From positions 57,412,001 through 57,476,000 of the forward strand of contig CM069145.1 of assembly GCA_035221665.1 (NCBI GenBank): a stretch of DNA of 64,000 nt. Direction: 5' to 3'. The DNA comes from Okamejei kenojei (taxonomy: Eukaryota). The position numbers were made by a program, and so were the translations under genes. How positions within the stretch are numbered: position 1 is the first letter of the stretch; the number at the start of each line of letters is the position of its first letter. Shown here one piece after another: positions 10,991-55,631 of the stretch. A model generated the notes under the pieces. That model did not search any database. It had not been told where the DNA came from and worked only from the letters and a program-made list of their open reading frames with translations.

Positions 10991-13900
10991 TTACTTTCGT
11001 GAAATAAACAACTTAGAAACCAAATTAAATTGATACTGGACCGCTCTCTTTAACTCCTCTCTGAATTTGCTTTGAATCGCTGCATAGATAAACGTGTTGG
11101 TGCAAGAGCTTAGAAGCTGCAGCATGTTCCCGGTTTCCTGGAGAATAAAGCGGGGGTCATTGAAACTTCCGAAGTTATAGTCATTGACAATGCGCACGCG
11201 TAAAAATTGTATGACATACGTCAGCCACAGCAGGATGAAACTCCCCGAGATGGTGAACAGCAAAACGATGGACTTCTTCCTGCTCTCCATTTGTGGGTCA
11301 CTCTGAGTCTCTCCGTTGCTCTGGACTCGGAGTCTCCTGCGGGCTCTACTGGCCGCCAGGATGTATCTGACCGTTAGAGCATTGAGCAGCAAAATCAGGA
11401 GGAATGGGAGACAGGGGGTCAAAATACTATCGAACCAGTCAAATGCTGTCCACACGGGTGAGGTGTATCGGATTTCCTTAATTCTGCAATACCATGGGAC
11501 ATTGTCGACCACATAGATAGGCTCGTGTATGAAGTAAAATGGGACGTTGGTCAAACAGCCCAGTGTACAGATGGTCCCTATAACCACTGCCGCCGTCCGC
11601 TCGGTGCAATACTTCGCTTTAAAGTTCTGGCAGCAAATAGCTACAAATCGATCAAAGGTGAAGCTGACCGTTAACCAGACTGAGCTGACCCTGGCCGCAA
11701 AGGTTAGCACGTTGCTGACACTACACACGGGAGTGATCGAGAGGAAACTGCCCGGAAAATACATCCCACTGAGCCGGTTGATTATCACAGCGGTGATAAT
11801 GACGAGAAGATCAGTCACCGCCATGGAGACCAGGTAACGAGTGATACACCGGGAGAGGCCGCACCTTCCTCGGGACAGGATCACAATTGCCACTAAATTA
11901 GCTGCACGCAAGAGAGAGAGAGAGAGAACGAGCGAGAGAGAGAGAAAGATTAGAGAAAGACAAGTTAGTGGAACTTAGTGGAGTGGCTTTTTCCAGGGAG
12001 AAGATACTTCGGAAACTGAAAGGCCTGAAGGTGGATAGGTCACCTGGGCCGGATAGACTGCACCCTAGCGTTCTGAAAGAGGTGGCTTTAGAGATTGTGG
12101 AGGCATTGATATTGATATTTCAGGAATCACTATAGTCAGCAGTGGTCGCAGATGATTGGAATAGTACCCATATTACCCCGCTGCACAAAAAGGGGTCAAA
12201 GCAAAATAGTGCGAACTATAGGCCGGTTAGTCTGACTTCAGTGTTTGGAATGATTTTAGAGTCCATTATAAAGGATGAGGTTACGGAGTACTTAGAAGTT
12301 CACGATAAAATAGGCCGATGTCAGCGTGGCTTTGTGAAGGGGTGGTCTTGCTTGACAAATGTGCTGGAATTCTTTGAAATAGCAGGACAGACAAAGGAGA
12401 GTCGGTAGATATTGAACACTTAGATTTCCAGAAACCCTTTCATAAGGTGCCACGCGTTAGGCTGCTAGATGAGATGAGAAGATAATGCCCACTGTATCAA
12501 AGGGGAGATACCAGCCTGGATAGTAGGTTGGCTGGATGGCACAAGACAAAGAGTGGCAAAAAACGGGGCTTTTCAGGTCACGGTTGAGTTCCGCAAGGGT
12601 CGGTGCTGGGGCCGCTACTCTTCACGTTATATATTAATCTTTTGGACCAGCGGATTGAAGGCTTGGTGGCAAAGTTTGCGGATGAGACAAAAAGAGATGG
12701 AGGGGCAAATAGTGTAGAGAATGCGGGGACTCTGCAGGAGGACTTGGACGGGTTGGATTATTGGGCAGTGCAGTGGTACATGGAAGATAGTGTAGCAGAG
12801 TGTGGAGTCATGCATTTTGGCAGTGGGATTAAAGGCGTGGTCTATTTTCTAAATGGGGTGAGAATCCAGAAATCGGAGGAACAAAGAGACTTGGGAGTGC
12901 TGGTGCAGAATTCCCAAAAAGTTAATCTGCAAGTCAAATCGGTAGTAAAGAAAACAAACTCAATGCTAGCATAATTTCACGAGGACTTGTAGACAAAAAC
13001 AGGGATGTAATGTTGAGGCTCTGTATGGCGCTGGTAAGGCCGCATTTGGAATATTGTGAGCAATTTTTGGCAGCATATCTGAAGAGGATCCAGAGGAGGT
13101 TTACAAGAATGATCCCAGGAATTAGTAGGTTAACCTATGATGAGCGGTTGTCGGCGCTGGACTTGTACTCGCTGGAGTTAAGAAGAAAGAGGTGAGACCA
13201 CATTGAAACATTCAGAATGGTGAAATGTTTGGATAGAGTGGACGTGGAAAGGATATTTCAACTAGTAGGAAAGTATAGGACTAGGGGCCTCAGAATTAAA
13301 GGACGTTCTTTTTAGAAGGAAATTAGGTGAAATGTCTTCAGTCAGAGGTTGGTGAATCTGTGGGATTCTTTGCTCAGAATGCTGTGGAGGCCGTCAGTGG
13401 ATATCTTTAAGGCAGATTTCTACAGATTCTTGATTAGTACAGTTGTCAGAGGTTATGGTGGGAAGGCAGGAGAATTAGGTTAGGAGGAAAGGATAGACCA
13501 GCCATGATTGAACGGCGGAATAGGCGTCATGCGCCGAATGGCCCAATTCAACTCCTATGCCTTATGACCTTTTGACAACATTTTATTAATGCCCTGAGCC
13601 CGAAAAATCCTGGGGTTCAGCTACCATTTTCCACGAACCACTGCAAGTTAATGAGGACTTGGGTACAAGAGCTGCAGTTGCTTCTGGTTCTGTTGACACG
13701 GCACCTGGGAGGTTAAAGGGCGTGGATTGATTCCTTACACAGGGCCATTTGGGAGAGCGAGGAAGCAGACTCGTTTTCAGAACTTAGACCAATGCAGTCC
13801 TCTTTTGATACATAGATAATTCTTACAGGTTCTGTCGCTGAGTGTATTTAAAATGCATAGATCGACAGTCTTTTTTGCAAATGGAAGATGTTGTTAATAC

Positions 13901-15462
13901 AGGAAAAATCAGGCTGATTGAAAAGTTAAAATTGAGAAGTTAAAAACTGTTAAAATTGTACAAGGCATTGGTAAGACCAATTCTGGAGTATGGTGTACAA
14001 TTTTGGTCGCCTAGTTATAGGAAGGATGTCAACAAAATAGAGAGAGTACAGAGGAGATTTACTAGAATGTTGCCAGGGTTCCAGCAACTCTGTTACAGAG
14101 AAAGGTTGAACAAGTTAGGTCTTTATTCTTTGGAGCGCAGAAGGTTAAGGGGGGACTTGATTGAGGTCTTTAAAATGATGAAAGGGATAGACAGAGTTGA
14201 CGTGGATACGTTTTTCCCATTGAGGGTAGGGAAGATTCAAACAAGAGGGCATGACATGAGAATTAAGGGACAGAAGTTTCGGGGTAACGTGAGGGGGAAC
14301 ATCTTTACTCAGAGGGTGGTGGCTGTGTGGAATGAGCTTCCAGCAGAAGTGGTGGAGGCAGGATCGATTTTAACATTTAAGAGTAAAGTGGATAGGTATA
14401 TGGACGTGAAGGGAATGACGGGGTATGGTCTGAGTGCAGGTAGATGGGACTAGGGGAAAACAAATGGTCGGCACGGACTGGAAGGGCCGAGAGGGCCTGT
14501 TTCCGTGCTGTAATTGTTATATGGTTATATGGTTAAAAGCGGTGCAGAAATAAGAAAGCAAATTACTGAAGAAACTCAGCGTGTCAGGCAGCATCTGCGA
14601 AGGAAAATGGACAGATGGCGTTTTGGATCGAGACAGTTCTACGAACATGTTTATACGTCCCTCAGTTATAGGAGCAGAATTAGGCGATTCGGCCGAAGAT
14701 AGACACAAAAAGCTGGAGTAACTCAGCAGGACAGGCGGCATCTCTGCAGAGAAGGAATGGGCGATGTTTCGGGTCGAAACCCTTTCGGCCCATCTACTCT
14801 GCCATTCAAACATGACTGATCTATCTTTCCCTCTCAACCCCATTCTCATGCCTTCTCTCCATAATCCCATGACACCCTTGCTAATCAAGAATCTGTCAAT
14901 CTCTACCTGTAAAAAAAGCCAATGACGTGGACTCCACAGCTGTTTGTGGCAATGAATTCCACAGATTCACCACCCTCTGACTAAAGAAATTCATTTTCCT
15001 CACATCTATGGGTACGTCCTTCTAATCTGACGCTATGTCTCTGGTCCTAGATTATCCCACTAGTGGAAACATCCTCTCCACATTCGCTCCATCAGACATT
15101 TCACTATTCGGTAAGTATCAGTGAGGCCTCCATCATTTTTGTAAACTCCTTTCCATGCCTTTGCCTCCACTGAACACGTTTGTAGGTTTCACTGAGAGAA
15201 ACTCAGTCGACACTCATTCCGACACGAATACGTCTTTCTTCGCCACACAGCATCCAGAAGTGAAGCGAATCCACCCGGTGAGTTCTGAAAGGTGTTTGGG
15301 GAACCGTAAACTAAATTTCACCACCTTTGCATCCAAGCGCTCGTGAGATTACAGTTATAATGAGGAACACGTGTATTACTGACATCGCTTACCTGGGATA
15401 GCGACGACGGCAAGAACAGTGTAGTAAATGACATAGGGCAGGCCCGTTGGTGGAGCGTGCAT
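10991..15462 (-). CDS. GPCR-1: GPR139/GPR142-like rhodopsin-class 7TM receptor; exon 1 15393-15462, exon 2 10991-11901; 326 aa, intact
   Basis: Exon 1 reads MHAPPTGLPYVIYYTVLAVVAIP+G|gtaagc. The acceptor (tc)n..gtgcag|CT AAT gives ANLVAIVILSRGRC. Total CDS is 981 nt with seven hydrophobic segments and motifs SVWLTVSFTFDRFVAIC and NMLQLLSSCTNTFIY, resembling GPR139 TSIWITVPLTIDRYIAVC and NMLALLNTAINFFLY. Confidence 0.9.
11911..11945. repeat. (GA)n microsatellite serving as the polypyrimidine tract of the GPCR-1 acceptor
   Basis: (TC)n on the minus strand immediately upstream of the gtgcag acceptor at 11902-11904. Confidence 0.8.
11990..13575 (+). mobile_element. Degenerate CR1 LINE (RT to 3' end) in the GPCR-1 intron
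   Basis: NYRPVSLTS, SCLTNVLEFFE, LGPLLFTLYI, KFADE and LVRPHLEYC, with many stops and frameshifts. Confidence 0.9.
13948..14535 (+). mobile_element. Young CR1 3' fragment, near-identical to 9872-10457
   Basis: ORF 13956-14453 is almost identical to the end of ORF 9802-10377 and has the same (ttatatgg)n tail. Confidence 0.95.
14790..15145 (-). mobile_element. CR1 3' fragment, preceded by Penelope-derived half-palindromes at 14560-14785
   Basis: Reverse complement of a CR1 3' end (VVNLWNSLPQ region). Confidence 0.7.
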
Positions 15463-15532
15463 TTTCAGAAAGATGAAGTCGCTTCTGTACCCAGCGCCAC
15501 ATGCGATCTGTTCAGCTTTTTAAAAAATCCCC

Positions 15533-15539
15533 TTTTATA
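15533..15539 (-). promoter_or_regulatory. TATA box of GPCR-1
   Basis: TATAAAA on the minus strand about 70 nt upstream of ATG 15462. Confidence 0.5.
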
Positions 15540-15734
15540 CCAGATTCGAGTTTGCCGCTGGGGAAAACTAACTACCATCATCATTAGTGTTTGTGAAATT
15601 GAGTTGCTCAACAAGGTTACATCATCACTAACATCAGTTGCAGCCATTGAGCGAACAAGGAATAGGGTGGATATTGGGGGTTTTAAGAGAATTGTTCGTG
15701 CCATTCATGTTTAAAGTTTACGTTTACATTTACG

Positions 15735-19655: not shown

Positions 19656-22600
19656 TTATTTCAACATTCTGCTAATTAGTTTGAATGGATATTTCACAGC
19701 GCCTTTCAACTGCTCCCTGAATTTGGTCTGCGTCCCTGCATAAATGCACGTGTTGGTGCAGGAACTGAGAAGCTGCAACATGTACCCGCTCTCCTGCAGG
19801 ATAAACATTGGGTCCTTGCTATTGGAGCCGATGGAATAGGTATCGCTTCTAATTTGCACAACGAGAAAATATATAATGTAGGTCAACCACAGGAGGATAA
19901 AACTGCCCGAGATGGCGAAGAGTAAAATGATCGACTTCCTCCTGCTCTCCATCTCGGGGTCACTCTGTTTATCGCCGTTGCTCTGGGCCCGGAGTCGCAT
20001 GCGAGCTCTGCTGGCGGCTAGAATGAATCTGACTGTCAGAGCGTTGAGCAGCAAAATCAAGACAAACGGTAGGCAGGGGCTTAGAATACGGTCTAGCCAG
20101 TCATAAACTTTCCATCCAACTGAATTATAATAGAATTCCGTTATGCTGCAGTACCAGGGTACGTTATCAATGATTTGCATCGCCTCATATATAAAGTAAA
20201 AGGGGACGTTTTTCAAGCTGGCCGCCACGCAGACGACTCCTATAACAAGAGCCGCGGTTTTCTCGGTGCAGTACCTCAGCTTTAGCTTTTGGCAGCAAAT
20301 GGCGAGGAACCGGTCGAAGGTGAAAGCGACCGTTAACCAAACGGAAGTGTCTCTGGAAGCGCAGCTGAGGACAATAATCAGACTGCAGGCTGGTGTGGTG
20401 GACAGGAATGTAACTGGGAAATAAATCGCCCGGAGCCGGCTTAATATCACAGCGGTGATAATGACCAGAAAGTCCGTCACCGCCATGAACACCAGGTAGC
20501 GAGTGATGCACTTGGAGAGGCCGCACTTTCCTTGGGACAGGATCACAATCGTCACCACGTTCGCTGCAAAAGAAAGAGAGAGTAGCCATGAGACAAATAT
20601 TGGTGAGGTTACTGTCGACCTTACCTGTTGTCTGATGGCCGGTCTGTGGCGAATAAAATCGATCCGTTAACTGATGGTTATCTTCAGATGAAGGAAATTT
20701 GCAGAGTGGAGGGGTGAGATAGGTGGAAGTCCATGTGGTTCGCAAGGAAAAGAAGGGAAGAGGGGGGTAAAGCCGTGAGGTGGGTGGCGATGGTTGAGGT
20801 CTTTTATTTTCTTTGTTGCTTCGGTGACTCGGGAAAAGATCGCCCAGTGGCTCCGCTAATAACGCGGAATACTTCAGCCACCGCAGCACTTAGGCGTTAC
20901 TTCAATGACCCCTCAACAAAACAACAGCACTGTCAGTGTTGTAGATGGCACGTTTCTGGGAACGTGGGGCCACAATGTTTGAAAAAAAAACCACCGAAAA
21001 CACAACCTTTACGTAGAGCATTGAATAGCACAGCAAAGAAACAGACCCGTTGTAGATGTCGAACATAACATCAGGTCGAAGATATCTTCTCTTCCTACAC
21101 GTAATCTCGATTTAAAGCTATGCGCTCAAGTATTTGATACATCCACACGGGGAAAATAATCCGACTGCCAACCCTATCTATACCTATCATAGTTTTATAC
21201 ACTCCTATCAGGTCTCCCCTCAGCCTCCAACCATGCTGAGAAAGCAATCCCAGTTTGTCAATTTCTCTTTATAGAGGCTATCCCCTAATCCAGGCACTAT
21301 TCTGGACTCTCTCCAAACTATCCACTTCATTCCGGTAATGGCGACCGAACAGTGCGCATTGAATGCGCAGTCTGAATCCTCGCCGTGATTTCACAACATA
21401 GCTCAGCAATAAATGTCCCCATGTGTCAGAACAGCAACGTTTTGGCTGGCTATAATTTGACATCACCCGGTAAAGCTGCTTTTAGCAACTAACAGGAAAG
21501 AAGCTTGATTCCCGTTCATTGCAGGAAATGACTGATAACGTTGTCCAAATAGACAGCTAACAACAGTAAATGCATCTACTATACATGTAATGACGAGAGA
21601 ACAAACCAACAAACCAGGAAACATCTGCGACAATGCTAACCAGAAACTGAAGAGTAACCAAAATGATGAGTAACAATATTTGATGTTAATTTAACAATAT
21701 TCGATGTTAATCGCATTGTCCATTTAGTTCACGATGAGTTTATGGATACATACAGCAAAACATAGATGCACAGATCAGAGACAAGACGTTCATTACAAGC
21801 GGTTATTGCGGATCAGAGGCATCTGCGGAGGTTGAAACGGGAAGCAAAACTGACGCATAAAATAATACCGATTCAATAGTTTCAGATCCCCATTCACGTC
21901 CGCGTGCCCATAATATTGGTGCAGTTATCGCCGTTATACTGTATAATGTTGTAATGCTGTCTTCTAGGGCCTATCTGACAGGCAAAGCCTGAGTATACAG
22001 AATGTCCAAACTATATTCAAAGCAAGCAGTAATTCGTGGATCTATGAGGGACAGTACATTATTAACACTGATATCGGACGAGATAATTACATCTCTGAAC
22101 GTAACTTAAAAGCACAAGACGACACTGCAGAACAACCTCAGCGATAATATAAATAGAATAGATTTGTTGAGCGACGTGATTATATTCGCATTTCGCTAAG
22201 AGAGCACAATGGACAATCGAAGGAGCATCAGGACACCGTGCGGTTTGAGCCGAGAACTCAGGCAGCGGCTGAAAAGGCGCAATTATCGCCGTTATACAGT
22301 ATAATGTTGCAACGCTGTCTTCTGCCGCTATCTGATAGGCAAAGCCCGAGTAGACAGAATGTCCAATCTATATTCAAAGCAAGCAGTCATTCGTGGATTG
22401 GCGAGGGGCAGTACATTATTAACACTGATATTGGACGAGAAAAATACATCTCTGAACGCAACTTAAAAGCACAAGACGACACCGCAGAACAACCTCAGAG
22501 ACAATATAAATAGAATGGATTTGTTGAGCGACGTGATTATATTCGTATTTCGCGAAGAGAACGACGGACAATCGAAGGAGCATCGGGTGTGCGCGGTTTG

Positions 22601-22787
22601 AGCCGAGAACTCAGGCAGCGGCTGAAAAGGAAAGCCCACGATTATAATGAGCTGCCAAGTATACAGCGAGGAAGCGGTCAAACATGAAACATTGGCATCT
22701 TCACTGCCAAACATTACCTAGTACACCGAAGGTCGCGAGAGCAGAATAATAAATGGCAAAGACTGGTCCATTTCCAGGTGCATGCAT
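19656..22787 (-). CDS. GPCR-2: GPR139/GPR142-like 7TM receptor; exon 1 22718-22787, exon 2 19656-20563; 325 aa, intact
   Basis: Exon 1 reads MHAPGNGPVFAIYYSALATFGVL+G|gtaatg. The acceptor ttttgcag|CG AAC gives ANVVTIVILSQGKC. The frame is open to TAA at 19656-19658; DRF and SSCTNTCIY motifs are present. Confidence 0.9.
21050..21365 (-). mobile_element. Old CR1 3' fragment in the GPCR-2 intron
   Basis: Reverse complement of the LERVQ..RLRGDLIGVYKT region. Confidence 0.55.
21921..22630. repeat. Tandem duplication of about 355 bp (2 copies) in the GPCR-2 intron
   Basis: Copies start gcagttatcgccgttata (21921) and gcaattatcgccgttata (22279); both end actcaggcagcggctgaaaagg. Confidence 0.9.
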
Positions 22788-22843
22788 CTTCCGTGTTGAT
22801 ATATTTCTAAGCTGCAGCTTTTCCAAATTGACTGTGACACATC

Positions 22844-22927
22844 TATTTATATCTGACGTTAACTGCCTAAACGCCAATCGGTTGTTGCAGTTTTCTGAAC
22901 AAACAAATTAAGGTAGTCATTTTCACG
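22844..22927 (-). promoter_or_regulatory. GPCR-2 proximal promoter: TATA plus a 42-bp block conserved with GPCR-3
   Basis: TATAAATA at 22844-22851. Block 22886-22927 (CGTGAAAATGACTACCTTAATTTGTTTGTTCAGAAAACTGCA on minus) matches 30845-30886 at 37 of 42 positions. Confidence 0.55.
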
Positions 22928-23749: not shown

Positions 23750-26207
23750 GGACGCGAACACCCGCTGAAACCCGTGAATGTCGGAAGGCCAGTTGATGGC
23801 GTGCTGTGGCACCTCAAACAGCAGGGTGCAGCCATTTTTAATCGGGTGGCGGCTGTGACGTCAACTACAAGGACAAGCGGTACTACTACCTCCAAAGGCG
23901 GGGCTCCAAGGCTCGCCGATGCGACCACTTTTCACGTATCTGGGTAATGCCTCGTCCGGCCGTCGGTAGTGCCAACTGCGGCCGGCCAAAAATATAGCCA
24001 CCTCTACACCTGGGATCGTCATTCGGGGCGGGATTTTCTCTTTGACAGGGGAGCAGAGGTCAGTATTTCGCCCCGCTCGGGCACCGATACTTGTTCCGTA
24101 AATAAGGGGCCGCCCCTGACCGTCACCAACAGCAGAAACATCAGAACATATAGGGTCTGCACCTCCCGCTTAAACCTGGCCATCAATCTTGCCAAGTGTC
24201 AGTTTGGCCTCACTTCCATCAACTTCCTCGGTCACCACATCAACCAGCACGGAGCGATCCCGCTCCCGACCAGGGTTCGAGACCATTCGCAAGTTTGGTA
24301 AACCATCCGCTGTGAAGGGACTCCAAGAGTTTGGCGGCATGGTCAACTTCTACCACCGCTTCATGCCAGCAGCCGCCAGGATCATGCGACCGCTATTCAA
24401 GGCCCGAGCCAACAAGTCAAAAGAGCTAATTTGGGACGATGCGGCCACGACCGCATTCGACGCCACGGAGGCGCTGCAAAGGCAACGATGTTGGTACATC
24501 CACTGGCCAACGCACCAACAGCTCTCGTGGTCGACACATCTGGCACAGCCGTGGGCAGAGTACTGGAACAACTGATCGATGGTAGCAGGCAGCCCCTCGC
24601 CTTTTTCACCTGAGAACCCCCAAGCAGACATACAGCGCTTTCGACCAGGAACTCTCCTCTCTCTACCTGGCCATCCGGCATTTCCGCTACTTCCACAAGG
24701 GCATGGATTTCACAGCGTTCATCGACCACAAGACACTCACGTTTGCCTTTGCCAAAGAGTTTGATCCTTGGTCAGTCCAGCATTAGCGCCCCCTGACATA
24801 CATCTCAGAATACATGACTTACGCCCAGCAAATTGCAAGCAAGAGCAACCAGGTCACAGATGCGTTGTCCCATACTGCCATCAATGCCATCCACACTCTG
24901 GCCCCAGGTGTCGACTACATGGCTGTAGTGGCCGCCCAGCGAGAGGATGAAGAGCCGCTCGCCTACCTCACCGCCATTTCAGTCCTGCTGTTGGAAGGTG
25001 TGCGATTCGGGCCTGCTGACACCACACTCCGCGACGTGTCTACGGGAGAGCCAAGACCCATCATCCCCGCTGCCTGGCGCCGCTGGATTTTCGACATGGT
25101 TCATGGCCTAGCTCACCCTTCCATTCGGCCAACAGAGGCACTGATGACAGCCAAGTTCATGCGGCACGGATTGTGCAAACAGATCGGCAACTGGGCCAGA
25201 GCGTGCATGCCCTGTCACACCTCCAACATTCGGCGTTACAGCAAGGCGCCACGCAGAACTTCGTCCTGACACACCGACGTTTCGACCACATCCACGTCGA
25301 CATCGTTGGACCCACTGCCCACATCCAGAGGTGTCACCCACCTCTTCACCATCGTGGACAGATTCACGAGATGGCCGGAATCCGTCTCGCTCTCGGATAC
25401 CTCCACTGCGACCTGTGCACGTGCCCTCACCGCTCACTGGATCGCCCACTTTGGCGTGCCGGCTGACATCTCCTCCAACAGAGGTGCGCAGTTCACCTCC
25501 GAGCTGTGGTCAGCAATGGCCCGGCTACTTGGCACTAAGCTGCACCACGCAACGGCCTACCACCCGCAAGCAAACGATCTAGTCGAACATTTTCACCGGC
25601 ACACGAAGGCATCCCTCAAGGCATGGCTCACGGGCCCAGACTGGATGGACGAATTGCCGTGGGTCATGCTAGGTATACGCACTGCCTCAAAGGAGGAGCT
25701 GGCAACTTCCTCTGCCGAGCTGATGTACGGCACCCCGTTTACGGTCACAGAAACTTCCTCCCGGCGGCATGTGGACATAAACAACCGCGCACGGCCACGT
25801 TGACGCACCTTCATGAGCAGGTGGGCACGCCTTCTCCTGTCCCAACGTCCCGACACGGTATCACAACCACTTACGTCCCATCCGACCTCTAAGGACTGCC
25901 AGTACGTCTTCCTTCACCGAGATTCCCACCGTACACCACTGCAATAGTATTATGAGAGACCCTTCAGAGTGCCGCACAACGACGCCACGGCTTTCATCAT
26001 TGACATGGGTGGCAGACAAGAGACTGTCTCCGTGGACCGTCTTAAGCCGGCACACTTGGACATTGACCAACCCCGCCGCAGAGGCATCCACTATCACCAC
26101 CAAACCCGCCCTCAACTCAACCAGCTGCAAACTCGAACACAGGAGACGAGTACATAAGATCCGGCTGCCTCACTCAACAGACTAACCGCCTCCAATACTC
26201 CGGTTCT

Positions 26208-30844: not shown

Positions 30845-30936
30845 CGTGAAAATGACTGCTTAAATTTGTTTGTTCGGAAAATTGCATCATGATCCAAGTT
30901 AATTGCTGCCTCGGCGGTTGACATTGGCTATAAGTA
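30845..30936 (+). promoter_or_regulatory. GPCR-3 proximal promoter: conserved 42-bp block plus TATA-like element
   Basis: CGTGAAAATGACTGCTTAAATTTGTTTGTTCGGAAAATTGCA at 30845-30886 and TATAAGTA at 30929-30936, at similar distances from the ATG as in GPCR-2. Confidence 0.55.
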
Positions 30937-30992
30937 GAAGGGTCAAACACGGATTTCAGAAGCTACGACTCACAAGCACACCGTCACGGAAA

Positions 30993-33202
30993 ATGCATGC
31001 TCCTGGAAATGGACCAGTCTTTGCCATTTATTATTCTGCTCTTGCAGCTTTCGGTGTTCTAGGTAACGTTTGGACGACTAAACTAGTATTCAAGGTTTGA
31101 CCAAATCTAAGCGGAATAGCGTGTCGATTGTACCTTTAATCTTCAGCCGCAGGCTGCGTATCGAATGTGTGCAGCACTACGTCTTAACTATCGGCTGATA
31201 TTCGTTCTGTTCTCTTTACGAAATAAGTAACTATGTTAATAAGTTAAATAAGTTATGATCGAGTAACTTTGAAAGGGAATCTGGTTATATAATTATTCTC
31301 TTTATATTTATGGAAGAAGCATTTATTTTGCAGCATGATCTTGGGCTATTAAGGCACAGTTAAGGTTTAGTCATAAGTCTAATCTAGCTCCGAAATTCAT
31401 TTTTCTGAATAATTTGGCGTTTCCTTAGTTTTTTACGTCTGGCCTGTCTTCCTTTCGGTTCGCCACTCTCTACTGTCGGATGGTTGGAGAAGGCAACATC
31501 ACAGAATGATCTGCTTCTAATATATTTATAATTATAATCGTCACGGAGTACCGCAACTATCGCTTTGCTAACGAGATGTTGAACTGACACAATAGAGGGA
31601 GAAGGATCCCGGTTATTGGCCGTAAAAAAACTACACCTACTTGCAACAAAAAACAAAATTCCTTCCTAAGCATAGCAAGAAATAACAGTTGGATAAGCGT
31701 TCAAATATTTGTTCTGATGCATTACTTTCGCTGACTGCTGCATGTAATATCATCTGATCTTCTTTGATATAGTCACAGTGACTTTCTTGTATTCCAGGCA
31801 GCTTAAAAGTTTATTCCAATATCTTCATAGTTTGATTTTGCTTCTTATTGCCTTGTAAACCACGCATTGCGTTGAGATTTATTAGAACATTTGCTCATTT
31901 AACATGAGGCGTTGTTTGACCTTTTCATGATTCATTTGTTCTGCTGCAATAGGAAAGGTTTCACACACTTGGAAATAAATGTTGCATCTTATTTTCCGTT
32001 TGATAATTTAATTGTATTCATGATAAGTATTTTTATTTATAAATGGATAACTATCGATAAGCCGATAACGTGAAACCACTTATTAGAGTATTAATTGGTG
32101 TAGCCAATTATTAGAGATGTGATAAAAACGGACGCAACGTGCTGGAGTAACTCAGAGGGTCATGCAGCACTTCTGGAGAACATGCATATGTGACTTTTTT
32201 GGATGAAGAATTTGATAACAGTTTTTCTCTAACTGGTAAACTCGGAGATCGAATGATCACTAAACTGTCTCGTGGTCTCTTCCTCTTACAGCCAACCTGG
32301 TGACAATTGCGATCCTTTCTCAAGGAAAGTGCGGCCTTTCCAAGTGCATCACTCGCTACCTGGTGTCCATGGCCGTGACGGATTTCCTGGTCATTATCAC
32401 AGCTGTGATATTAAGCCGGCTCCGGGCGATTTATTTCCCAGTTACATTCCTGTCCACCACACCAGCCTGCAGTCTGGTTATTGTCCTCAGCTGCGCTGCC
32501 AGAGACACTTCCGTTTGGTTAACAGTCGCTTTCACCTTCGACCGATTCATCGCCATTTGCTGCCAACAGCTAAAGCTGAGGTACTGCACCGAGAAAACCG
32601 CGGCTCTTGTTATAGGAGTCGTCTGCGTGGTGGGCTGCCTGAAAAACGTCCCCTTTTACTTCATTTACGAGCCTGTTTATGTTGCGAATAACATACCCTG
32701 GTACTGTAGCATCAAAGAAAATAATTACACTGCCGTTGGCTGGAGGGTTTATGACTGGCTGGACCGAATTTTGAACCCCTGCCTCCCGTTCCTCATGATT
32801 CTGCTGCTCAACGCTTTTACAGTCAGATTCATTCTAGCCGCCAGCAGAGCTCGCAGGAGACTCCGGGCCCAAAGCAATGGCGAGAAACAGAGTGACCCCG
32901 AGATGGAGAGCAGGAGAAAGTCTATAATTTTACTCTTCGCCATATCGGGCAGTTTTATTCTCTTGTGGTTGACCTACGTTGTAAATTTTGCGTTTGTACA
33001 AATTACAAGCAATACCTACTCCGTCGTGTCAAATGGCAACGATCCAAAGTTTATCCTGCAAGAAAGCGGGTACATGTTGCAGCTTCTCAGTTCCTGCACC
33101 AACACGTGCATTTACGCAGGGACGCAGACCAAATTTAGAGAGCAGTTAAAAGGCGCGTTGAAATATCCATTTGATTTAATTACCCAACGATTGAAACAAT
33201 GA
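30993..33202 (+). CDS. GPCR-3: GPR139/GPR142-like 7TM receptor; exon 1 30993-31062, exon 2 32292-33202; 326 aa, intact; closest paralog of GPCR-2, divergently oriented
   Basis: Exon 1 reads MHAPGNGPVFAIYYSALAAFGVL+G|gtaacg. The acceptor cttacag|CC AAC gives ANLVTIAILSQGKC. ORF 32300-33202 is open, and AATAAA follows at 33212. Confidence 0.9.
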
Positions 33203-33783
33203 GGCTAACTGAATAAATGCTTATTTCATTTGCAAGGTTAATAAAGAGGAATAATAAAGTTTTTTTCATGTATTGGAACTGTGCATGAGCTGATGATTGC
33301 ATTGTTCATGGTCAGCTATAATGCTAATATAAATATCGATTAAAGATGGACAACGAATCCCATTGGTTATAGTGCACCGGTGATCAAACACTGCGAAATA
33401 GAATTCCATCAAATTAAGTTGACATCTTCTATTTATTTTTGCTAAAATAAGGATATAGTAATTTGTGGCAAGAGTAACGCATATGGTTCATCATCAATTC
33501 AGGCCAAACCACTTTGTCATATGCTTGGAGTCACATTCAGGAATAGAGAGGACAATAGATACACTACATGGTTGAAAATACATTATTGATGATATTGTAC
33601 TGAAGTGGAACATGTGGTTTAATAAGGGAGCGGCAATATGCCATCTCTCCACCAATTCCAATATTCGTGGCCTGTCGGGAGGGAGGGGGAATTTCCTGAG
33701 CGTTAGTATGGGTGTTGTGGGCCGAAGGGACTGGCTTACATAGGGCTAGTGTGGACATTGTTGGTCGAATGGATTCATGTGAT

Positions 33784-33990
33784 GGCAGCTCAGTCACTCA
33801 GGGTCGGTGAGCTGGCAGCTCAGTCACTCAGGGCTGTTGGGCTGGCAGCTCAGTCACTTAGGGCTGGTGGGCTGGCAGCTCAGTCACTCAAGGCTGGTGG
33901 GCTGGCAGCTCAGTCATTCAGGGCTGGAGGGCTGGCAGCTCAGTCACTCGGGACTGGTGGGCTGGCAGATCAGTCACTCGGGGCTGGTAG
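33784..33990. repeat. Minisatellite, 30-bp unit x7
   Basis: ggcagctcagtcactcagggctggtgggct repeated with period 30, starting at 33784, 33814 and so on to 33964. Confidence 0.95.
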
Positions 33991-34017
33991 TTCACTTAAG
34001 GTTATTCCTTGAAATTC

Positions 34018-34413
34018 CATTTCAAGCAGAGTGCAGGCCACCAAACTCAATTTCATAGCATTTCAGTCAGAGCGCAGGCCACCAAACTCAATTTCATAGC
34101 ATTTCAGGCAGAGTGCGGGCCACCAAACTCAATATCATAGCATTTCATGCAGAGTGCAGGCCACCAAATTCAATTTCATAGCATTTCAAGCGGAGTGCCT
34201 GCCACCAAATTCAATTTCATAGCATTTCAAGCAGAGTGCAGGACACCAAGTTTAATTTCATAGCATTTCAAACAGAGTGCGGGCCACCAAACTCAATTTA
34301 ATTGCATTTGAAGCAGAGTGCAGGCCACCAAACTCAATTTCATTGCATTTCAAGCAGAGTGCAGGCCACCAAACTCGATTTCCTAGCATTTCAGGCAAAG
34401 TGCAGGCCACTAA
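34018..34413. repeat. Minisatellite, 41-bp unit x~9.7
   Basis: catttcaagcagagtgcaggccaccaaactcaatttcatag with period 41, starting at 34018, 34059 and so on to 34387; no spacers. Confidence 0.95.
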
Positions 34414-34819
34414 ATTGCCAAACAGTTCAGTTGATTCACAGCTTAGAATCACGGGTGTGGACTCGTCCTCGCGATCTTCCAGAGTGACTGACTCACGTCC
34501 AGGCTTTTATAGTCCTGCCCCCCCCCCCCGAAGGGGCGTTACCTTCATCGTGGTGATAGACATGCGAGAGGACCAATCAGCCGAACTCATGATTTTTTAA
34601 ACTCTCATAACATTTTTACTTTTCATCGATCGGAAAAATCCTCGGGGCTGCATCAGCGGACGAGGACTGTGAGTGAGATGACCAAACATCATAGCGATAT
34701 ATGTCAGCATTTTTTCTAAAATCAATATACAGCACAGACAGGAAGTGGTCAAGATGAGACCTTTAGTTATATAGATACACACACACACGCGCACTCACAC
34801 GCACTCACGCACACACACC

Positions 34820-40507: not shown

Positions 40508-41680
40508 ATGGACATGGCTCCTAATTGCCAGTGCGTATTAGCCATCACGGCATTATGCGCTCAGACATTCATTTTCTTTATATCCATGCTACCAGGTGCG
40601 TATTTAACGAGACCTTTTGATATTTATTGATTTTACCAATTTTTTTAAAGCATAATAATGTGATTGGGGAAATAATTAAGGTAAGAGTGGAGTGAATGAG
40701 GTGAGAAGAGAAGTATTTAACAGGAACCTGAGAGGCAACTTTGTCACACAAAGATTGTACATGGAACGAGGTGCTTTCGGGGGTAGTTGAGACAGGTGTT
40801 ATCTCAACATTTAAAATACATTTCGACAGGTACATGCAAAGGAGATGTTTGGAGGGCAAAACGCGGGAAGGTGGGGCGAGTGTAGAGAGGGCGGCATTGG
40901 GGCATTGATAAGCTGGGCCGCATGTTTCGTGATGTATGACTATGAATCTGGATTTGGGTCACAATCGGTGGTGACCAGGAATGAGTTCCCTCTTTCATGA
41001 GGATTGGAGACTCTGGAGAACATCTATGGAGCTGCGATCTCTCCGAACTTAAGCACCGACACACATGTCCGCTCGAACAGCTATTAATCGCACAGAGATG
41101 TAAATCAAAATGAGAAGTTTCAAACATCTTCGGCACATTTTTTATCTGCTCACAGATGCTGGCGTGTTGGGGTGGGGAATGGCGGGTCGGAAGGTATTGG
41201 GATGGGGTGGGGGTTGATGGACGTGGGAGGTAAAAATGTGACTCGGTATCTCGTAATCTAGCAATCATCGGGTCATCGTTTCTCGCGAAAGCTTCAACTG
41301 TAATTCCCGCGTTGGATTGTTGTACTTTATATATTATATGTAATTAATACATCTTTGGTAATTTGATTTCAGAAGTTAGCACTCAGGACATTTTGTCCCA
41401 AGAACCTTCAGCCTTGGTGATAAGTGAAGGAAATACTGCGACCTTTCCCTGTGACTACCCCGCCACCTACACTGCTGCTTACTTTTACTGGTACGTCCAG
41501 TACGAGAGTTGTGGACCGCAGTATATGTTGGTCAGGCACACAGCAAATCTTGAAGAGAACGCGCCAGCTTTCAAAAAGCGGTTTACTGCACTGCAGGACA
41601 GAATGAACGCTCGCATCCCTCTGAACATCTCACTCGCGGAGTTGTCTGACTCCGCTGTATATTACTGCGCGGCCATGAAC
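40508..41680 (+). CDS. T-cell receptor alpha/delta-type V segment V1; predicted leader exon 40508-40595, V exon 41373-41680
   Basis: Ig V-set hallmarks: QEPS..EG..ATFPC (C23), WYVQ (W41), RFT, LNISLAELSDSAVYYC (C104). The acceptor tttcag|AA is phase 1. An upstream hydrophobic exon MDMAPNCQCVLAITALCAQTFIFFISMLP+G|gtgcgt is also phase 1, though the leader is less certain than the V exon. A 23-RSS follows. Confidence 0.88.
40698..40945 (+). mobile_element. Old CR1 3' fragment inside the V1 leader intron
   Basis: aggaacctgagaggcaactttgtcacaca..acatttaaaatacatttcgacaggtacatg..gtatgactatga. Confidence 0.65.
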
Positions 41681-41719
41681 CACCATGTTACAAGATCACA
41701 GGGCACTGGTACAAAAACT
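41681..41719 (+). promoter_or_regulatory. 23-bp-spacer recombination signal sequence of V1
   Basis: Heptamer CACCATG at 41681-41687, exactly 23-nt spacer, nonamer ACAAAAACT at 41711-41719, directly after YYCAAMN. Confidence 0.9.
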
Positions 41720-49865: not shown

Positions 49866-50217
49866 ATGTTCACATGTTCACGAAATATATTTTGGAAACG
49901 CCTGGCCGTGTCTGTTTGTCCACTAATGATATCGTTTGGCTTAGGTGGGGAAAACGTTGTGCAAACATCTCCATCACAAATTCCCAGCGAATGGAAGACT
50001 ATCTCGATGGATTGTAATTCAACTATTGCATTCTCCGAGATGTATTGGTATGTGCAGCAGGCAGCCGAGGGCCCAAAATTATTGATCATGGCTTCAGATC
50101 TGGGTGAATATGAAGGTCGATTTACAGCAGTCGGTCGAAGTTCGGAGAAGAATGGTTCCTTGACAATCTCGTCCTTGCGTCTGACAGACACCGGAACCTA
50201 CTACTGTGCAGTACACA
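49866..50217 (+). CDS. T-cell receptor alpha/delta-type V segment V2, apparently with leader and V in one exon
   Basis: One ORF runs from MFTCSRNIFWKRLAVSVCPLMISFGLGG into ENVVQTSPS..ISMDC..MYWYVQQAAEGPKLLI..GRFT..GSLTISSLRLTDTGTYYCAV. C23, W41 and C104 are present, and an RSS follows. Confidence 0.88.
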
Positions 50218-50254
50218 CACAGTGCCAAGAAGCGTCGGAGACCGTACAAAAACT
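50216..50254 (+). promoter_or_regulatory. RSS of V2: canonical heptamer with a 21-nt spacer, or overlapping CACACAG heptamer with a 23-nt spacer
   Basis: CACAGTG at 50218-50224 and nonamer ACAAAAACT at 50246-50254 (21 nt between). An alternative CAC at 50216 gives exactly 23 nt. Confidence 0.85.
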
Positions 50255-51079
50255 GCCCTGCGTTCAAGTTGCTAGTTTCAAAGTGACTGAACTAATAGGC
50301 GCTCTGTTGTGTGAAAGATGGTGAAGTGCCCACTTCACCATCGTCTTAAGATATATTCTTTTGATATCTGTTGATGAAATATATGGACTCTGTGGAACAC
50401 TTTGCCCGAAAGCTTTCTTCGAGTGCGCATTATTACACTATCAATCCGTCCACCAATGGTTGCCCAGTAGAAACCCTCAGCGAAAAGCACAGAGGTTCAA
50501 GATCATCGAATCGCAGTTTGAAGAGTAATTACTGTTCGCGGCGTTCAAAATATAATCGACAAATACTTTCACAACGAGCAAGCGAGGTATTACGTGATAA
50601 AATATATTCAATGTTTAGATGTTATTTGAACACAATGCATTGTAATCAATATTTCGCTAACTCAATCTATCGAGTTTAGGAATAAATGAATACTGATTCA
50701 TTCAAATACACGTTTGTTTTGGAGTATTATATGAGAGTAATTTATTAGACGAGCTACTGCGCTTCGGGGTAGAATGTGGTATATTTTTCGTGAATGGAAA
50801 CAGGAGTATTGGAATGCTATATTATATCATATCATAAAAGTAATACAAATAATATAATCTAATGTCGAAGAATGCATAAGACACATATAACGGATGCTTT
50901 GAACATATATGAAATGCCGCTGGGTGGATAAAATTGCAATTGAACATGTTGTGAGTTTTGCTGCAGGATCCAGAACATTCCACCAGGTACACGTACCGGC
51001 AACTGTCTTCTGCCTTACGATTCTAGGATTTCTTTAGTAGGCACAATGTTGAATTACAATGCATATTGATGAATTGAGG

Positions 51080-51655
51080 GTTCGGTCCTAATTTGAGGAA
51101 TGACATTCTTGTTATTCCTAATTTGAGGAAGGACATTCTTGTTATTGAGGGACTTCAGCGTAGGTTTACAAGGTTAATTCCCGGGATGGCGGGGCTGTCA
51201 TATGCTGAGAGAATTCAGCAGCTGGGCTTGTACACTCTAGGGTTTAGAAGGATGAGAGGTGGTCTTATTGAAACATATAAGATTGTTAAGGGTTTGGACA
51301 CGCTAGAGGCAGGAAACATGTTCTCGATGTTGGGTGAGTCGAGAACGAGGGGCCACAGTTTAAGGATTTAAGTTTTAGGAGTAAGCCATTTAGAACGGAG
51401 ACGAAGAACCACTTGTTCTCACAATGGTGAGTCTGTGGAATTCTCTGCCTCAGAGGGCGGCAGAGGCAGGTTCTCTGGATACTTTCAAGAGAGAGCTAGA
51501 TAGGGCTCTTAAAAATAGCGGAGTCGGGGGATATGGGGAGAAGGAAGGAACGGGGTATTGATTGGTGATGATCAGCCATGATCACATTGAATGGCGGTGC
51601 TGGCTCGAAGGGCCGAATGGCCTACTCTTGCACCTATTGTCTATTGTCTATTGTC
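51080..51655 (+). mobile_element. CR1 3' fragment
   Basis: NLRKDILVIEGLQRRFTRLIPGMAGLSY..RTRGHSL with tail (ctattgt)n. Confidence 0.9.
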
Positions 51656-52089
51656 TTAAAATCGAAGTAAATGGATTTGTAAACAATACGACGTGGAAGT
51701 GCAGCTGAACAAAATAAGTACAATTGAATAACTAAAGAAACTTAAGCCGCAAGGTGAAATACGCACCTAAATGCTTAAGTTGTATAAATCATTTTCATCA
51801 ATCAATCAATGAGTAGACATGGGCACTGGATGTCAAACAATAGATGTTAAGAGTTATGATATGGCTTTAATCCGCCGTCAAGCGAGTTGATGAACGCCTC
51901 TGATGTAAGACACAACAAAATTCACACCATGGGAGGGGGAGGACACGTTAATTAAAGAGAGAGATATCGGAAGTCCTAGAATGGAAAGCTTCAGTTTGGG
52001 AGCAGATGCGGTGGTGAAGAGAAATTGAGAGTAGGGGATCACGTAATTGCCAGGGGCAAGGTCGAAGGAAATTGCGTCAGGTTACCTGG

Positions 52090-52560
52090 GAGAACAGTTG
52101 TGCAATACGTCAGTGAGGCCACACTTACAGTATCGTGTTGAGTTTTAGTCAAGCGACTAGAGGTAGAAAGTCATCAAGCAGGAAATCCTGCGGAGACGAT
52201 TGAGGAGGATGGCGCCAGAACTCGACCCCATGAGCTATTAAGGGAGGTAATGGAGTATATGACTATTCCTCTTAGGGCTGGAGTCTGAGAGATGATCTTG
52301 CAGATGTGTACACACTCATGGGGTGAATAGATAAGGTGAGTGCAGTTGTTTTAGGGGGTGGAGGGGGCATAAATTGGAATAAGAGCACATAATTGAACTA
52401 GAGCACATAAATTGGAATAGAGATGGGAAACATTTAATAGGAACACGAGTGGCAAATTTGTCACACAGAAGATGTTAGGTGCTGTAATTGGAACGAGCTG
52501 TTAGGGGACGTAGTTGGGGTGGTTACAATAACAACCTTTGAAATATATTTAGGAAACCGA
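52090..52560 (+). mobile_element. Old degenerate CR1 fragment; a Rex1 tail follows at 52778-53035
   Basis: cagtgaggccacacttacagtatcgtgttgagttttagtc is an LVRPHLEY-like remnant; downstream reads LKNRFPAVIRLLN. Confidence 0.55.
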
Positions 52561-53154
52561 ATAGAAACGATTGAACAGAATAGAAGGAGCCGTGGATGTG
52601 GCATCTTCAAACTTATATGAAGTCTCATTCATGAGGCAGGTTAAGAGCTATGATGTTTGGACGAGTGTGGTGGGGGTAATGGCATATATCCAGAATTGTA
52701 TAACAATATAAAATAAGAAGTTTGGAACACATGGACTCCCCGTTTTGCAAATCTGTCTGCTGGGATCATGGAGATCGCCACACTCAAGAACCGTTTCCCC
52801 GCTGTTATCAGACTGTTGAACATACCTCTCCTCCCTTTTAATCTCCCCTTTCGCGCCTTTTCACTTTTAAACTGCTCTTTCTCTGTCACCGTAACACTAT
52901 ATTCACCACTCGGTTTATTCTTTCTTTTGTACTACCCTCATGTGCTCATCTATGCTGTAATTTGCCTGGATAGCACGCAACACAAAGTTTTCACGGTTTC
53001 TCGATACAGGTGACAATAATAAACCAACACAAATACCAATTATTGATCGGCCATTTATCGTCAAATACCAATACATTTGATAATGCCAGATCGACGGTCG
53101 TTGGATAACAATATTTCATCGCACGATTAGCCAAAGTTGAGATTTAGTGTTCCC

Positions 53155-55631
53155 TCATCTTACTAATGTAGTAATTCGATTCCAAAGATACAGTGCAGCA
53201 TTTTTCATTTCCTCCCTGAATTTACTCTGGGTAACTACATAAATGCAAGTGTTGGTGCAAGAGCTCAGTAGCTGAAGCATGTTTCCACTTTCCTGGACGA
53301 ATGAACCTTGGGTCGTTGAAATTAGAACCACTGAAATAGGGTTCCTTTGAAATTTCCACGTAGAGGAAGTCAACAACGTACGTCATCCACAACAGGATGA
53401 AACTGCCCGAGATGAGAAAGAGCAAAACGATGGACTTTCTCCGACTCTCCATCTCTGCGTCGCTTTGCTTTTCTCCGTGACTCTGAGACACGAGTTTTTT
53501 GCGGCCTCTACTCGCCACGAGAATGTGTCTGGCCGTCAGAATATTAAAGATTAAAATCAGGACGAACGGGAGGCCTGGGTTTAAAATGCGTGCAAACCAA
53601 TCATACATTGTCCAGGCGAGTGATGTGCTGTAGACTGATTTCCTGGTACAAAACCATGGTTGATTGTCAATGATGTAGAGTGGTTCGTAGATAAAGTACC
53701 AGGGGACGCTTTTCAAACAGCTCAACACACAGATTGTCCCAATGACCACCGCCGCCGTTCTCTCCGTGCAATATGCACTCCTCAGCTTCTGGCAACAAAT
53801 GGCCACGAACCGATCAAAGGTGAATGCGACTGTCAACCAGACCGAACTCTCGGTGGCTGCATAAATTGCAACAGTGCTGAAAGTACAAGCTGGGGTTAAG
53901 GACATAAAACTAAAGGGAAAATAAATGCCAACAATCCGGTTGAATATAACAGCAGTGATAACGACCAGTAGATCCGTCACCGCCATCGACACCAGATACA
54001 GAGTGATGCACTTGGAGAGACCGCATCTTCCTCTGGATAGGACCATAATCGCCACCACATTCACTGATGGAAAAGACATTTTAAATTAATAGACGTGTTA
54101 TCATATTTATTTTAGTTTAGTTTAGTTTAGTTTAGTTTAATTTATTGTCACGTGTACCAAAGTACAGTGAAAACCTTTTTGCTGCGAGCAACCAGTCAAC
54201 TGAAAGACAATACATGATTCGGCTCGAAAGGCCGAATGGCCCTACTCCTGCACCTGTTGTCTATTGTCACGATGAAAATCGGGCCATCCACAGTGGATAC
54301 TCACGCAAACCATCACCCGGATGTTTTAAAGTTCTCACAGATAATAGTTTACAGATTGAGAGCAAAGCGAAAACACAAGTTCCCGGGATCAGTTACTGAC
54401 ACGATTTTACACGGAATATTTAGCTCTCAATTTAAAGGTAAGGACACGAGTGCGAAGGATTGGAAGGTATCTCGAAAATCCATTGAATGTTAGTCGGTAT
54501 CTATTAGCGTACAATTTTCCCTTTGAGGGGACAATGCAATGAAAATCTAGGTCTCTTCCACTATGGCTGCCAATCCAATACTGCGGCCTTTCCAGTAACG
54601 GCACAAACACAATGTACCAGTTTCCCTTTACCTTGAACTGAATTGAGCCTTAACTCATAAAGTATAGCAAGGTACTGGTGCCACAAATACGATACAGATA
54701 AGATATTGAACCGCAAGGTACAAAGTCGCCCCAAGCTAACCATCAAGTTGCAGAATACAATTAATATTTATCTGTATGCACGCTCAAAAAATAAACACAA
54801 TATCGGCGTTAACTTGGATTTTTTTTTTAAATGATCAGAGAGACTTACAATAAATATCAAGTAAAACGATTAAGAATGTTCTCAAAGATCCATGAAAAAT
54901 TGTAACATCTTCTGAAAACTAATAAGAAGCTCTGGCCCAAGGCCGACTAAAATAAAGACGTTATTCGTGGAAGGGCGGCGAGAGCCACTAGTCTAGTCCG
55001 GTAAATCAAAGACAATCTGTGGTAAAGAGAAGTCCGAAAGTAAGCATGACCTCGCACACCACCCAGCCACCACTGTTGTCTGATCGGGATCTCCTTGTCT
55101 GCTGAATCGCTCTGCGACATTGGACCATTTACATCGTTCACCTAGATCGGGTAAATTGTGACTTGGAATGATGGCATACAATCTATGATTACGAATTTGC
55201 AGTTGAATTTGCATCTTCCCAATTAGCAATCCTTCTGAAATGAATAGAAATACAATTCGGGGAAAGGCATCTCAGGTTGCAAGGTCGCCATTAATCATTT
55301 TCCATCACCACTGAGGGTTAAGATTTGTGCAATGGCGTTGTTGATTTCAGCAAGTCCGCCAGGAGACCTGTCATCAAAACCTCACATGTTATAAGAAGTT
55401 ACCAAAAATTTAGTTTCGTGACTAATTCTAAAATTACCATTGGAGTTTGCTTACCGAGGTAGAAGCACGCAGAGAAAAATGTGTCACCTTGTTAAATATC
55501 AGAAAAACTGTAATTTATTAAACATCGATATATCATTCGCTGATTTAGTACAACGGCTTACCCGGAACGCCGATGGCTGCAAGAAGTGGGTAGTAAATAG
55601 CATAAACTGGACCAGTTATTCTGTCGTGCAT
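53155..55631 (-). pseudogene. GPCR-4: GPR139/GPR142-like receptor with a single +1 frameshift before TM7; exon 1 55562-55631, exon 2 53155-54063; young pseudogene or assembly indel
   Basis: Exon 1 reads MHDRITGPVYAIYYPLLAAIGVP+G|gtaagc, and the acceptor is ttttccatcag|TG AAT. At 53296-53299 the sequence is TTC ATT CGTC CAG GAA where paralogs have F-I-L-Q-E. TM7 (QESGNMLQLLSSCTNTCIY) continues in the other frame to the stop at 53155. Total length is 979 nt (3n+1). Confidence 0.85.

Follow-up and report, generated by a model that had tools for sequence, protein, structure and literature searches.

What do four neighbouring receptor genes in the genome of the skate Okamejei kenojei detect, and to which family do they belong? 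The genes, here called g1 to g4, lie in a 64,000-nucleotide stretch of DNA (the window; GenBank assembly GCA_035221665.1, contig CM069145.1, positions 57,412,001 to 57,476,000), and an initial annotation had assigned them to an expanded, lineage-specific GPR139/GPR142 subfamily with a diversified ligand face. Comparison of their sequences with the rest of the genome and with public databases points instead to a separate receptor lineage that is multi-copy across sharks and rays. Within this one genome the lineage follows two evolutionary regimes, a conserved old tier, to which g1 to g4 belong, and a young tier under positive selection. With a probability of about one half, we read the family as a chemosensory repertoire of olfactory-type sensory neurons.

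Six-frame translation and Pfam searches identified the four as two-exon genes for G-protein-coupled receptors (GPCRs) of class A (the rhodopsin family), each with a 7tm_1 domain above cut-off (E 3e-18 to 6e-24). Their exons are as follows.

15393..15462, minus strand: g1 exon 1, 70 nt, phase-1 GT donor
10991..11901, minus strand: g1 exon 2, intact receptor of 326 aa (gene 15462-10991)
22718..22787, minus strand: g2 exon 1, 70 nt
19656..20563, minus strand: g2 exon 2, intact receptor of 325 aa (gene 22787-19656)
30993..31062, plus strand: g3 exon 1, 70 nt
32292..33202, plus strand: g3 exon 2, intact receptor of 326 aa (gene 30993-33202)
55562..55631, minus strand: g4 exon 1, 70 nt
53155..54063, minus strand: g4 exon 2, interrupted by a one-base frameshift near 53297 (gene 55631-53155)

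In every case exon 1 ends with a G followed by the GT donor, interrupting the frame in phase 1 in the middle of transmembrane helix 1 (TM1), and an intron of 3,491 (g1), 2,154 (g2), 1,229 (g3) or 1,498 bp (g4) precedes a single large exon. The anatomy originally described is therefore reproduced, as is the short amino terminus, which starts with MH and lacks an N-glycosylation sequon in all four proteins; g3 has one sequon in extracellular loop 2 (ECL2). The supposedly invariant first exon proved invariant in length and not in sequence, with 43-64 of 70 nucleotides identical. The DRF motif, the TM3 cysteine, the ECL2 motif PW(Y/F)C and the conserved word in intracellular loop 3 (ICL3) each occur in all four proteins. 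The motif reported as SSCTNTxIY reads S(S/C)CTNTxIY in frame in three, and the g4 copy sits behind the frameshift. Pairwise protein identity is 63-67%, except for g2 and g3 (86%). All 20 further genes of the cluster on C15 also have a 70-nt first exon and 19 of them an MH start, and other subfamilies have first exons of 67-82 nt and other starts. In a predicted model of an Amblyraja protein that is 95% identical to g3, TM1 begins at residue 8, with about seven residues ahead of it. The model of this g3 orthologue (pLDDT 76) has a seven-helix fold with helix 8 and a TM-score of about 0.7 to class A structures, and its ECL2 is a beta-hairpin, which is a feature of peptide receptors. Two adjacent minisatellites, with 30-bp and 41-bp units, lie a short way downstream of g3 (33783-34414).

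The frameshift in g4, not remarked on in the initial annotation, is probably an assembly error and the gene probably intact, because contigs from all four public DNA runs lack the extra base near 53297. These runs represent at most two samples from two studies, with two contigs per run over the site, some possibly paralogous; over the intron identity is about 99%. Given contigs without the extra base, we considered and then rejected a pseudogene as the likely state of g4.

The expansion proposed for these receptors is borne out by a genome-wide count. Searched with two TM3 patterns, the genome yielded 554 exact matches and 1,220 at one mismatch, and reversed-pattern controls gave none; these matches are loci and not genes, include broken genes and may include uncollapsed haplotypes. 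Contigs C176 and C988 are alike at 91-97% in part, and unplaced contigs may duplicate haplotypes. A protein search of the same genome returned 2,892 candidates, 130 of which were scored. The scored ones are all at least 53% identical, and among them is a dense receptor cluster of 2.4 Mb at C15:55.2-57.6 Mb. Birth-and-death evolution also finds support in the frequency of broken copies. Among 20 copies picked from the first 100 matches and spread over chromosomes, exon 2 is intact in 11 and broken in 9.

Outside this genome, a homologue search returned 2,560 proteins at E 0.001, and the named entries among the best 120 are all elasmobranch. The best homologues, from skates, rays and sharks, carry the NCBI name ‘probable G-protein coupled receptor 139’. 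The genes are already present in databases, under an automatic label that is wrong and misleading. Two elephant shark proteins, as we take P0204 and P0177 (UniRef) to be from their A0A4W3 accessions, fall inside the family on long branches in a quick 59-row tree, a hint that the family may reach chimaeras. The first exon of the family was not seen in the Logan-derived homologues P0043 and P0066, which hence give no sign of splicing.

One subfamily is dispersed rather than clustered, with 310 signature matches genome-wide. Its copies occur on most chromosomes, close to the ends of contigs and on numerous small ones, and share a cassette of 3-4 kb around the two exons at about 82-91% identity. 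They have a 76-82-nt first exon, a variable amino terminus, a near-identical promoter and a hypervariable pocket. A transposon vehicle was not demonstrated from the shared stretch of about 3-4 kb, element ends not having been sought.

How the family relates to GPR139 depends on which comparison is made. GPR139 is the best solved-structure match, weakly for a single sequence (E 2e-10) and more clearly for a profile (68 bits, E 6e-18, against 44.5 bits for the next; human structures PDB 7vug/9m42), and among solved structures GPR139 and peptide receptors come nearest. A search by fold could not tell the peptide-type class A receptors apart, and ranked GPR139 11th. A GPR139-specific pattern has a single locus in the genome, on C22, and exon 2 of this true single-copy skate GPR139 starts at the same codon and in the same phase as that of the family (the acceptor side was compared). 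Because codon and phase of the intron match, common descent with GPR139 is well supported. At least two frameshifts, which are probably indel errors, interrupt the true GPR139 itself (L021, C22:1.17 Mb), and the assembly may give inflated counts of pseudogenes.

Phylogeny separates the two. Among representatives clustered at 50% identity, 131 proteins reached E 1e-30 or better in a profile search, and the 30 looked up are elasmobranch first, then salamander, coelacanth, teleost and amphioxus, several of them nameless. In our main tree (26 rows, LG+G4), which also served for support values and approximately unbiased (AU) tests, the family groups with a salamander protein (100/100), next with coelacanth (Latimeria) and teleost orphans (99/98) and then with amphioxus (98/96), and a GPR139 plus GPR142 clade (100/99) excludes it. 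Forcing the family together with GPR139, or with GPR139 and GPR142, was rejected (AU p=2e-5 and 9e-8). The tree tool flagged long branches meeting near the root of this tree; the 59-row quick tree, for which a careful mixture search was unfinished, agrees on the same groups. These trees place the family as a separate lineage, sister to low-copy amphibian and fish orphans and not orthologous to GPR139 or GPR142. Of the assignment first made, the relatedness stands, with the best structure match and the common intron position and phase, and the subfamily membership falls.

The residues give a similar picture. GPR139 and GPR142 also lack the NPxxY proline, and share W6.48, Y4x61 and often N7x38 with the family; they lack the cysteine pair between TM3 and ECL2 that the family has, and the family has mostly lost P6.50 and R6.51. 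They differ as well in number, a single GPR139 pattern match in the genome compared with about a thousand family loci. In the available text of Rinne et al. (2019, PMC6504862), three further gene sets beside GPR139 and GPR142, including GPR210A/B, are described from coelacanth, gar and fishes, and sharks are not mentioned there. The family's nearest bony relatives are salamander, coelacanth and teleost orphans and may correspond to the GPR210 sets; they appear as few clusters against the family's thousand or so loci.

The initial annotation had also taken the expansion for a recent lineage-specific burst, which does not hold for g1 to g4. Each has a shark partner at a support of 100/99: for g1 a sawshark protein (82% identity), for g2/g3 one from a horn shark, and for g4 one from a catshark (79%). 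By protein identity, g1 is 94-95% identical to proteins of Amblyraja, Leucoraja and Rhinoraja and 78-82% to shark proteins, and g3 is 95% identical to Amblyraja, 87% to Mobula and 82% to Heterodontus. Since each of the three lineages groups with shark genes, they predate the shark-ray split, which lies roughly 270-300 million years back. Only g2 and g3, the youngest pair in the window, look younger.

Selection was assessed with site models, using our own GY94/F3x4 code on IQ-TREE trees and no correction for recombination. The old-cluster set comprises 46 second exons, all intact, that lie on C15, C176 and C241; it leaves out g4, one length outlier and 8 of 40 small loci missed by the extraction pattern. 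Its ratio of nonsynonymous to synonymous substitution rates (dN/dS, or omega) is 0.21 overall. By region, omega is 0.46 in ECL3, 0.30 in ECL2, 0.26 in ICL3 and 0.12-0.13 in TM2, TM3 and TM7, and the outer loops exceed the inner loops (0.34 vs 0.22, p=0.004). The 32 standard pocket positions do not stand out from the other TM positions (0.20 vs 0.21, p=0.80). There was no significant positive selection in this set (M8 vs M7 p=0.051, M8 vs M8a p=0.16); a first grid approximation had favoured M8 over M8a, and this candidate was rejected on full optimisation. The window's clade is by these models under purifying selection. Of the conserved signalling face and diversified ligand face once proposed for g1 to g4, the contrast between outer and inner loops was recovered for their clade, and diversification of the pocket was not. 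Similarly, a conserved ICL3 (residues 217-234, 83% identity) opposite variable ECL2 (50%) and ECL3 (41%), the two least conserved regions, is seen among the four genes, and does not extend to the 46 paralogues, where the same ICL3 stretch is only 61% identical and its omega lies near that of ECL2.

The dispersed subfamily behaves differently. For 25 sequences with its signature, out of 30 intact copies (median nucleotide identity 90%), M8 is strongly favoured over M8a (twice the log-likelihood difference 355), with 10.7% of sites at an omega of 5.4. The 26 sites with posterior above 0.9 fall at 2.57-2.65, ECL1, 3.29/3.32/3.33, ECL2, 6.51/6.54, ECL3 and 7.32-7.39, and none lies in the intracellular loops, TM1, TM4 or TM5. 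Among them, 23 are within the 73 pocket and outer-loop positions (of 286) that had been listed beforehand (Fisher p=2e-12), so that in this subfamily the diversified ligand face on a conserved signalling face is upheld. A tree-free count over 11 disjoint close pairs agrees: dN/dS is 2.1 for pocket positions (1.4 when local dS is the reference), 1.85 for the outer loops, 0.46 for other TM positions and 0.32 for the inner loops. The corresponding values for 8 old-cluster pairs are 0.16, 0.44, 0.20 and 0.21.

Evidence on where these genes may be expressed comes from their promoters, which have a TATA-like word 57-89 bp ahead of the start codon. The elements recognized in the window are listed here; O/E denotes the Olf/EBF site.

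15532..15564, minus strand: putative g1 promoter, with an O/E-like site at 15555-15564 (2 mismatches) and a TATA box
near 22843-22855, minus strand: TATA box of the g2 promoter, with no O/E match (4 mismatches) and no homeodomain part
30898..30937, plus strand: putative g3 promoter, with a homeodomain word, a degenerate O/E-like site (3 mismatches) and a TATA-like box
55699..55736, minus strand: putative g4 promoter, with a homeodomain word, 2 bp to an O/E-like site (1 mismatch), and a TATA-like box

The full module is thus present in g4, its O/E-like part in g1, its homeodomain part in g3 and neither part in g2. We took the O/E core consensus from the available text of PMC3247239 and an RP58 control word from that of PMC3247230. 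In a discovery set of 20 non-redundant promoters (of 35), 13 have an O/E-like match with at most two mismatches, compared with 1.7 in shuffles. The z score was 8.4, with a maximum of 2.6 for ten other motifs, and out of 1,000 permutations of the consensus none fitted equally well. A TAATT(G/A/T) or TTATTG word stands at -29/-28 in 8 of the 20. The test window for this set was picked after the alignment had been viewed, and the rule was then fixed in advance for new genes. Forty of these yielded 31 first exons, 29 of them non-redundant and 22 with a TATA box by the rule. Here O/E-like matches occur in 6 of 22 promoters (null 1.7, p=0.004), and at the fixed position in 5 (null 0.56, p=0.001). 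When 22 promoters were examined for regulatory words, homeodomain words stood in 18 (9.4 expected), and words for ETS, RUNX, IRF and NF-kB showed no enrichment. From these counts the module is, as a sequence feature, real and position-locked, and its identification as an EBF site is plausible. The promoters of the C15 cluster have in addition a second conserved block about 60-90 bp ahead of the TATA box, with one 8-mer common to 8 of 22, presumably a CRE/AP-1-like (cAMP response element) word plus a forkhead-like word. Mouse odorant receptor (OR) promoters are marked by enrichment of O/E, homeodomain and TATA elements (PMC3247239), and OR enhancers have adjacent Lhx2 and Ebf sites (Monahan et al. 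2017), as far as the consulted portions of both papers go.

Between g3 and g4 lie two variable (V) exons of the immunoglobulin V-set type, overlooked in the initial annotation and the only ones detected in 264 kb, both resembling those of T-cell receptors (TCRs).

41373..41719, plus strand: V1, a V exon probably of TCR alpha/delta-like class, with a 23-bp-spacer recombination signal at 41681-41719
49945..50254, plus strand: V2, a TCR-like V exon whose recombination signal has either a canonical heptamer spaced by 21 bp or a non-canonical heptamer spaced by 23 bp

Neither V1 (for a canonical leader, within 700 bp) nor V2 has a clear leader exon; a 100-kb scan at C15:57.61-57.71 Mb revealed no joining (J) segment, and a TCR-alpha constant profile had no match. 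As to the class of the V segments, a search for long-protein homologues was empty and Atlas returned generic V-set names only. Within the genome, V1 is closest to tandem V arrays located on C176 and C988, two contigs that also have close paralogues of g2/g3. TCR-like V segments with 22-23-bp signals stand amid receptors of the g2/g3 subclade at C176:300-400 kb and C241:320-420 kb, and search matches indicate the same interleaving on C988. Inside the C15 cluster there are two groups of immunoglobulin (Ig) C1-set exons, IgH-like miniloci, at 56.94-56.95 Mb and 57.05-57.06 Mb. This linkage favours neither a sensory nor an immune reading, because OR genes are likewise located among mammalian TRAV genes (PMC4574546, in the text available). 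C2H2 zinc-finger remnants or arrays occur on both flanks of the receptor cluster, at 2856-3800 of the window and at C15:57.61-57.66 Mb. Repeats occupy 5200-10400, 23900-25900 and 58300-61800 of the window, and we take them to be broken pol/integrase frames resembling long-terminal-repeat retrotransposons together with remnants of reverse transcriptase resembling that of long interspersed elements.

If the family is chemosensory, Lhx2- and EBF-type factors would bind the module of homeodomain, O/E-like and TATA elements, which would direct expression in sensory neurons. Each receptor's class A pocket would then accept its own small polar or peptide ligand, and a common G protein would be engaged at the conserved inner face. 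Among the old clustered genes, g1 to g4 included, ligands would have stayed fixed since before the shark-ray split, and the young dispersed subfamily would sample new ligands under positive selection. The design would suit a chemosensory repertoire, with two exons, about seven residues before TM1, tandem clusters plus dispersed copies, and broken copies. Also in favour are the number of loci, set against 65 known chemoreceptor genes in the catshark, the pocket and outer-loop selection in the dispersed subfamily and the promoter module. We advance only tentatively, somewhat short of even odds, the fuller proposal of a further elasmobranch chemoreceptor family with many hundreds of intact genes, one or a few per olfactory neuron, an EBF/Lhx2-type promoter, an independent origin from a GPR139-related orphan, and old and young tiers.

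Several observations count against a chemosensory role. Purifying selection acts on the clade to which g1 to g4 belong, with an undiversified pocket and no significant positive selection, and g2 lacks both distinctive parts of the module. The promoter fit dropped from 13/20 to 6/22 out of sample, where 5.2% of draws of permuted consensus words were equally good (p=0.052) and a TATA box by the rule is missing from 7 of 29 promoters; the promoters are also related by ancestry. EBF factors are active in B cells and in other neurons too. The omega of about 5 and the adjoining TCR V and Ig constant-like exons fit immune use equally. Finally, the top-50 list for catshark ‘brain & olfactory epithelium’ in the accessible part of PMC11979771 contains no GPCR gene, a weak point for any large family.

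Innate-immune or barrier-epithelium sensors, akin to formyl-peptide receptors and MRGPRs and acting in leukocytes, skin or gut on ligands from microbes or parasites, could explain the very strong selection on the pocket. They would also suit the interleaving with V segments bearing 23-bp signals (in the window, C176 and C241, and by search matches C988) and the two groups of Ig constant-like exons within one cluster. Against this, the words of immune-cell factors are not enriched in 22 promoters whereas homeodomain words are, a clear leader is missing from V1 and V2, the 100-kb region scanned shows no J segment, and the example of mammalian ORs makes the linkage non-discriminating. The promoter module leans towards the chemosensory alternative, and we regard immune sensors as unlikely, though they deserve to be taken seriously. 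Receptors for internal or reproductive signals, such as neuropeptides or gamete and mate-recognition cues, would accord with the descent of the wider group from FMRFamide/MIP receptors. The Atlas neighbours include FMRFamide-receptor-like clusters, the available text of a review ties GPR139 to MIP/sex-peptide and FMRFamide receptors (PMC12208981), g1 to g4 have conserved shark counterparts, and the predicted ECL2 hairpin is of the peptide-receptor kind. A thousand loci with hypervariable pockets exceed the needs of an endogenous peptide set, however, and this explanation seems to us distinctly improbable.

A shade less probable again is the aromatic amino-acid sensor of GPR139/GPR142 type, in nose, gut or brain, that had been offered as a lead. 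GPR139 is the nearest solved structure by sequence, and W6.48 is kept in 42 of 46 paralogues, N7x38 in 26, an aromatic residue at 3.33 in 36 and Y4x61 in all. Yet of the residues that the available text of PMC5430874 gives as needed or modelled for the response of GPR139 to Trp and Phe (F3x33, H5x43, W6x48, N7x38, R6x51), W6.48 alone is generally retained. The exact F3x33 occurs in 8 of 46, H5x43 in 8 and R6x51 in 2, the last two in none of g1 to g4, and at 3.33 and 7x38 g2/g3 have Cys and Tyr, respectively. These positions are moreover among those positively selected in the dispersed subfamily, which a single common ligand would not yield, and the lead is left unsupported. The copies might instead be mostly passengers of duplication-prone subtelomeric or small-chromosome DNA, with few functional, given the 3-4 kb cassette at about 82-91% identity, the contig ends, the many small contigs and the 9 broken copies of 20. 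An omega of 0.3-0.5 inside the cell together with about 2 in the pocket is incompatible with neutral copying, as is 0.21 over the 46 old paralogues with purifying selection, and some breaks are likely assembly errors (g4 and the frameshifts in the single GPR139). The selection results largely refute this account, and we give it hardly any weight.

The likeness of the family to OR, TAAR, V1R, V2R and T2R receptors extends to a large clustered repertoire with broken copies, a short amino terminus, pocket-focused positive selection in part of the family and a putative promoter with O/E-like, homeodomain and TATA-like elements; with mammalian ORs it also shares the location of copies among V segments, here TCR-like ones. 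Unlike vertebrate chemoreceptor families it has an intron in the coding region and an independent origin from a peptide-receptor-like branch. Its only Pfam match above cut-off is 7tm_1 (one Srx match is sub-threshold), and not the OR, V1R or T2R families. Formyl-peptide receptors and MRGPRs are class A, lineage-expanded receptors with fast-evolving pockets that serve in immune cells and sensory neurons. They are absent from the best 60 solved-structure matches of the family, in which 22 promoters showed no immune-cell signature.

We found no published description of the family in literature searches and in the available text of three shark genome papers, a survey that covered sources outside subscription. 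The present analysis contributes the split into a conserved and a positively selected tier within one genome, an intron position common to the family and true GPR139, AU tests on the phylogeny, a promoter test on new genes and the likely artefact in g4. According to the accessible portions of the reports, the catshark has 65 known chemoreceptor genes (PMC6368271) and cartilaginous fishes have a paucity of GPCRs (PMC8455134).

Cartilaginous fishes have been described as chemoreceptor-poor, which is at odds with how much they rely on chemical senses. If the chemosensory reading is true, a family of about a thousand misleadingly named loci would overturn that count, being over ten times larger than the 50-65 chemoreceptor genes known from elasmobranchs. 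It would also represent a further independent origin of a vertebrate repertoire of sensory or immune receptors. The two regimes indicate targets for deorphanisation, with g1 to g4 suited to conserved cues and the dispersed members to fast-changing ones.

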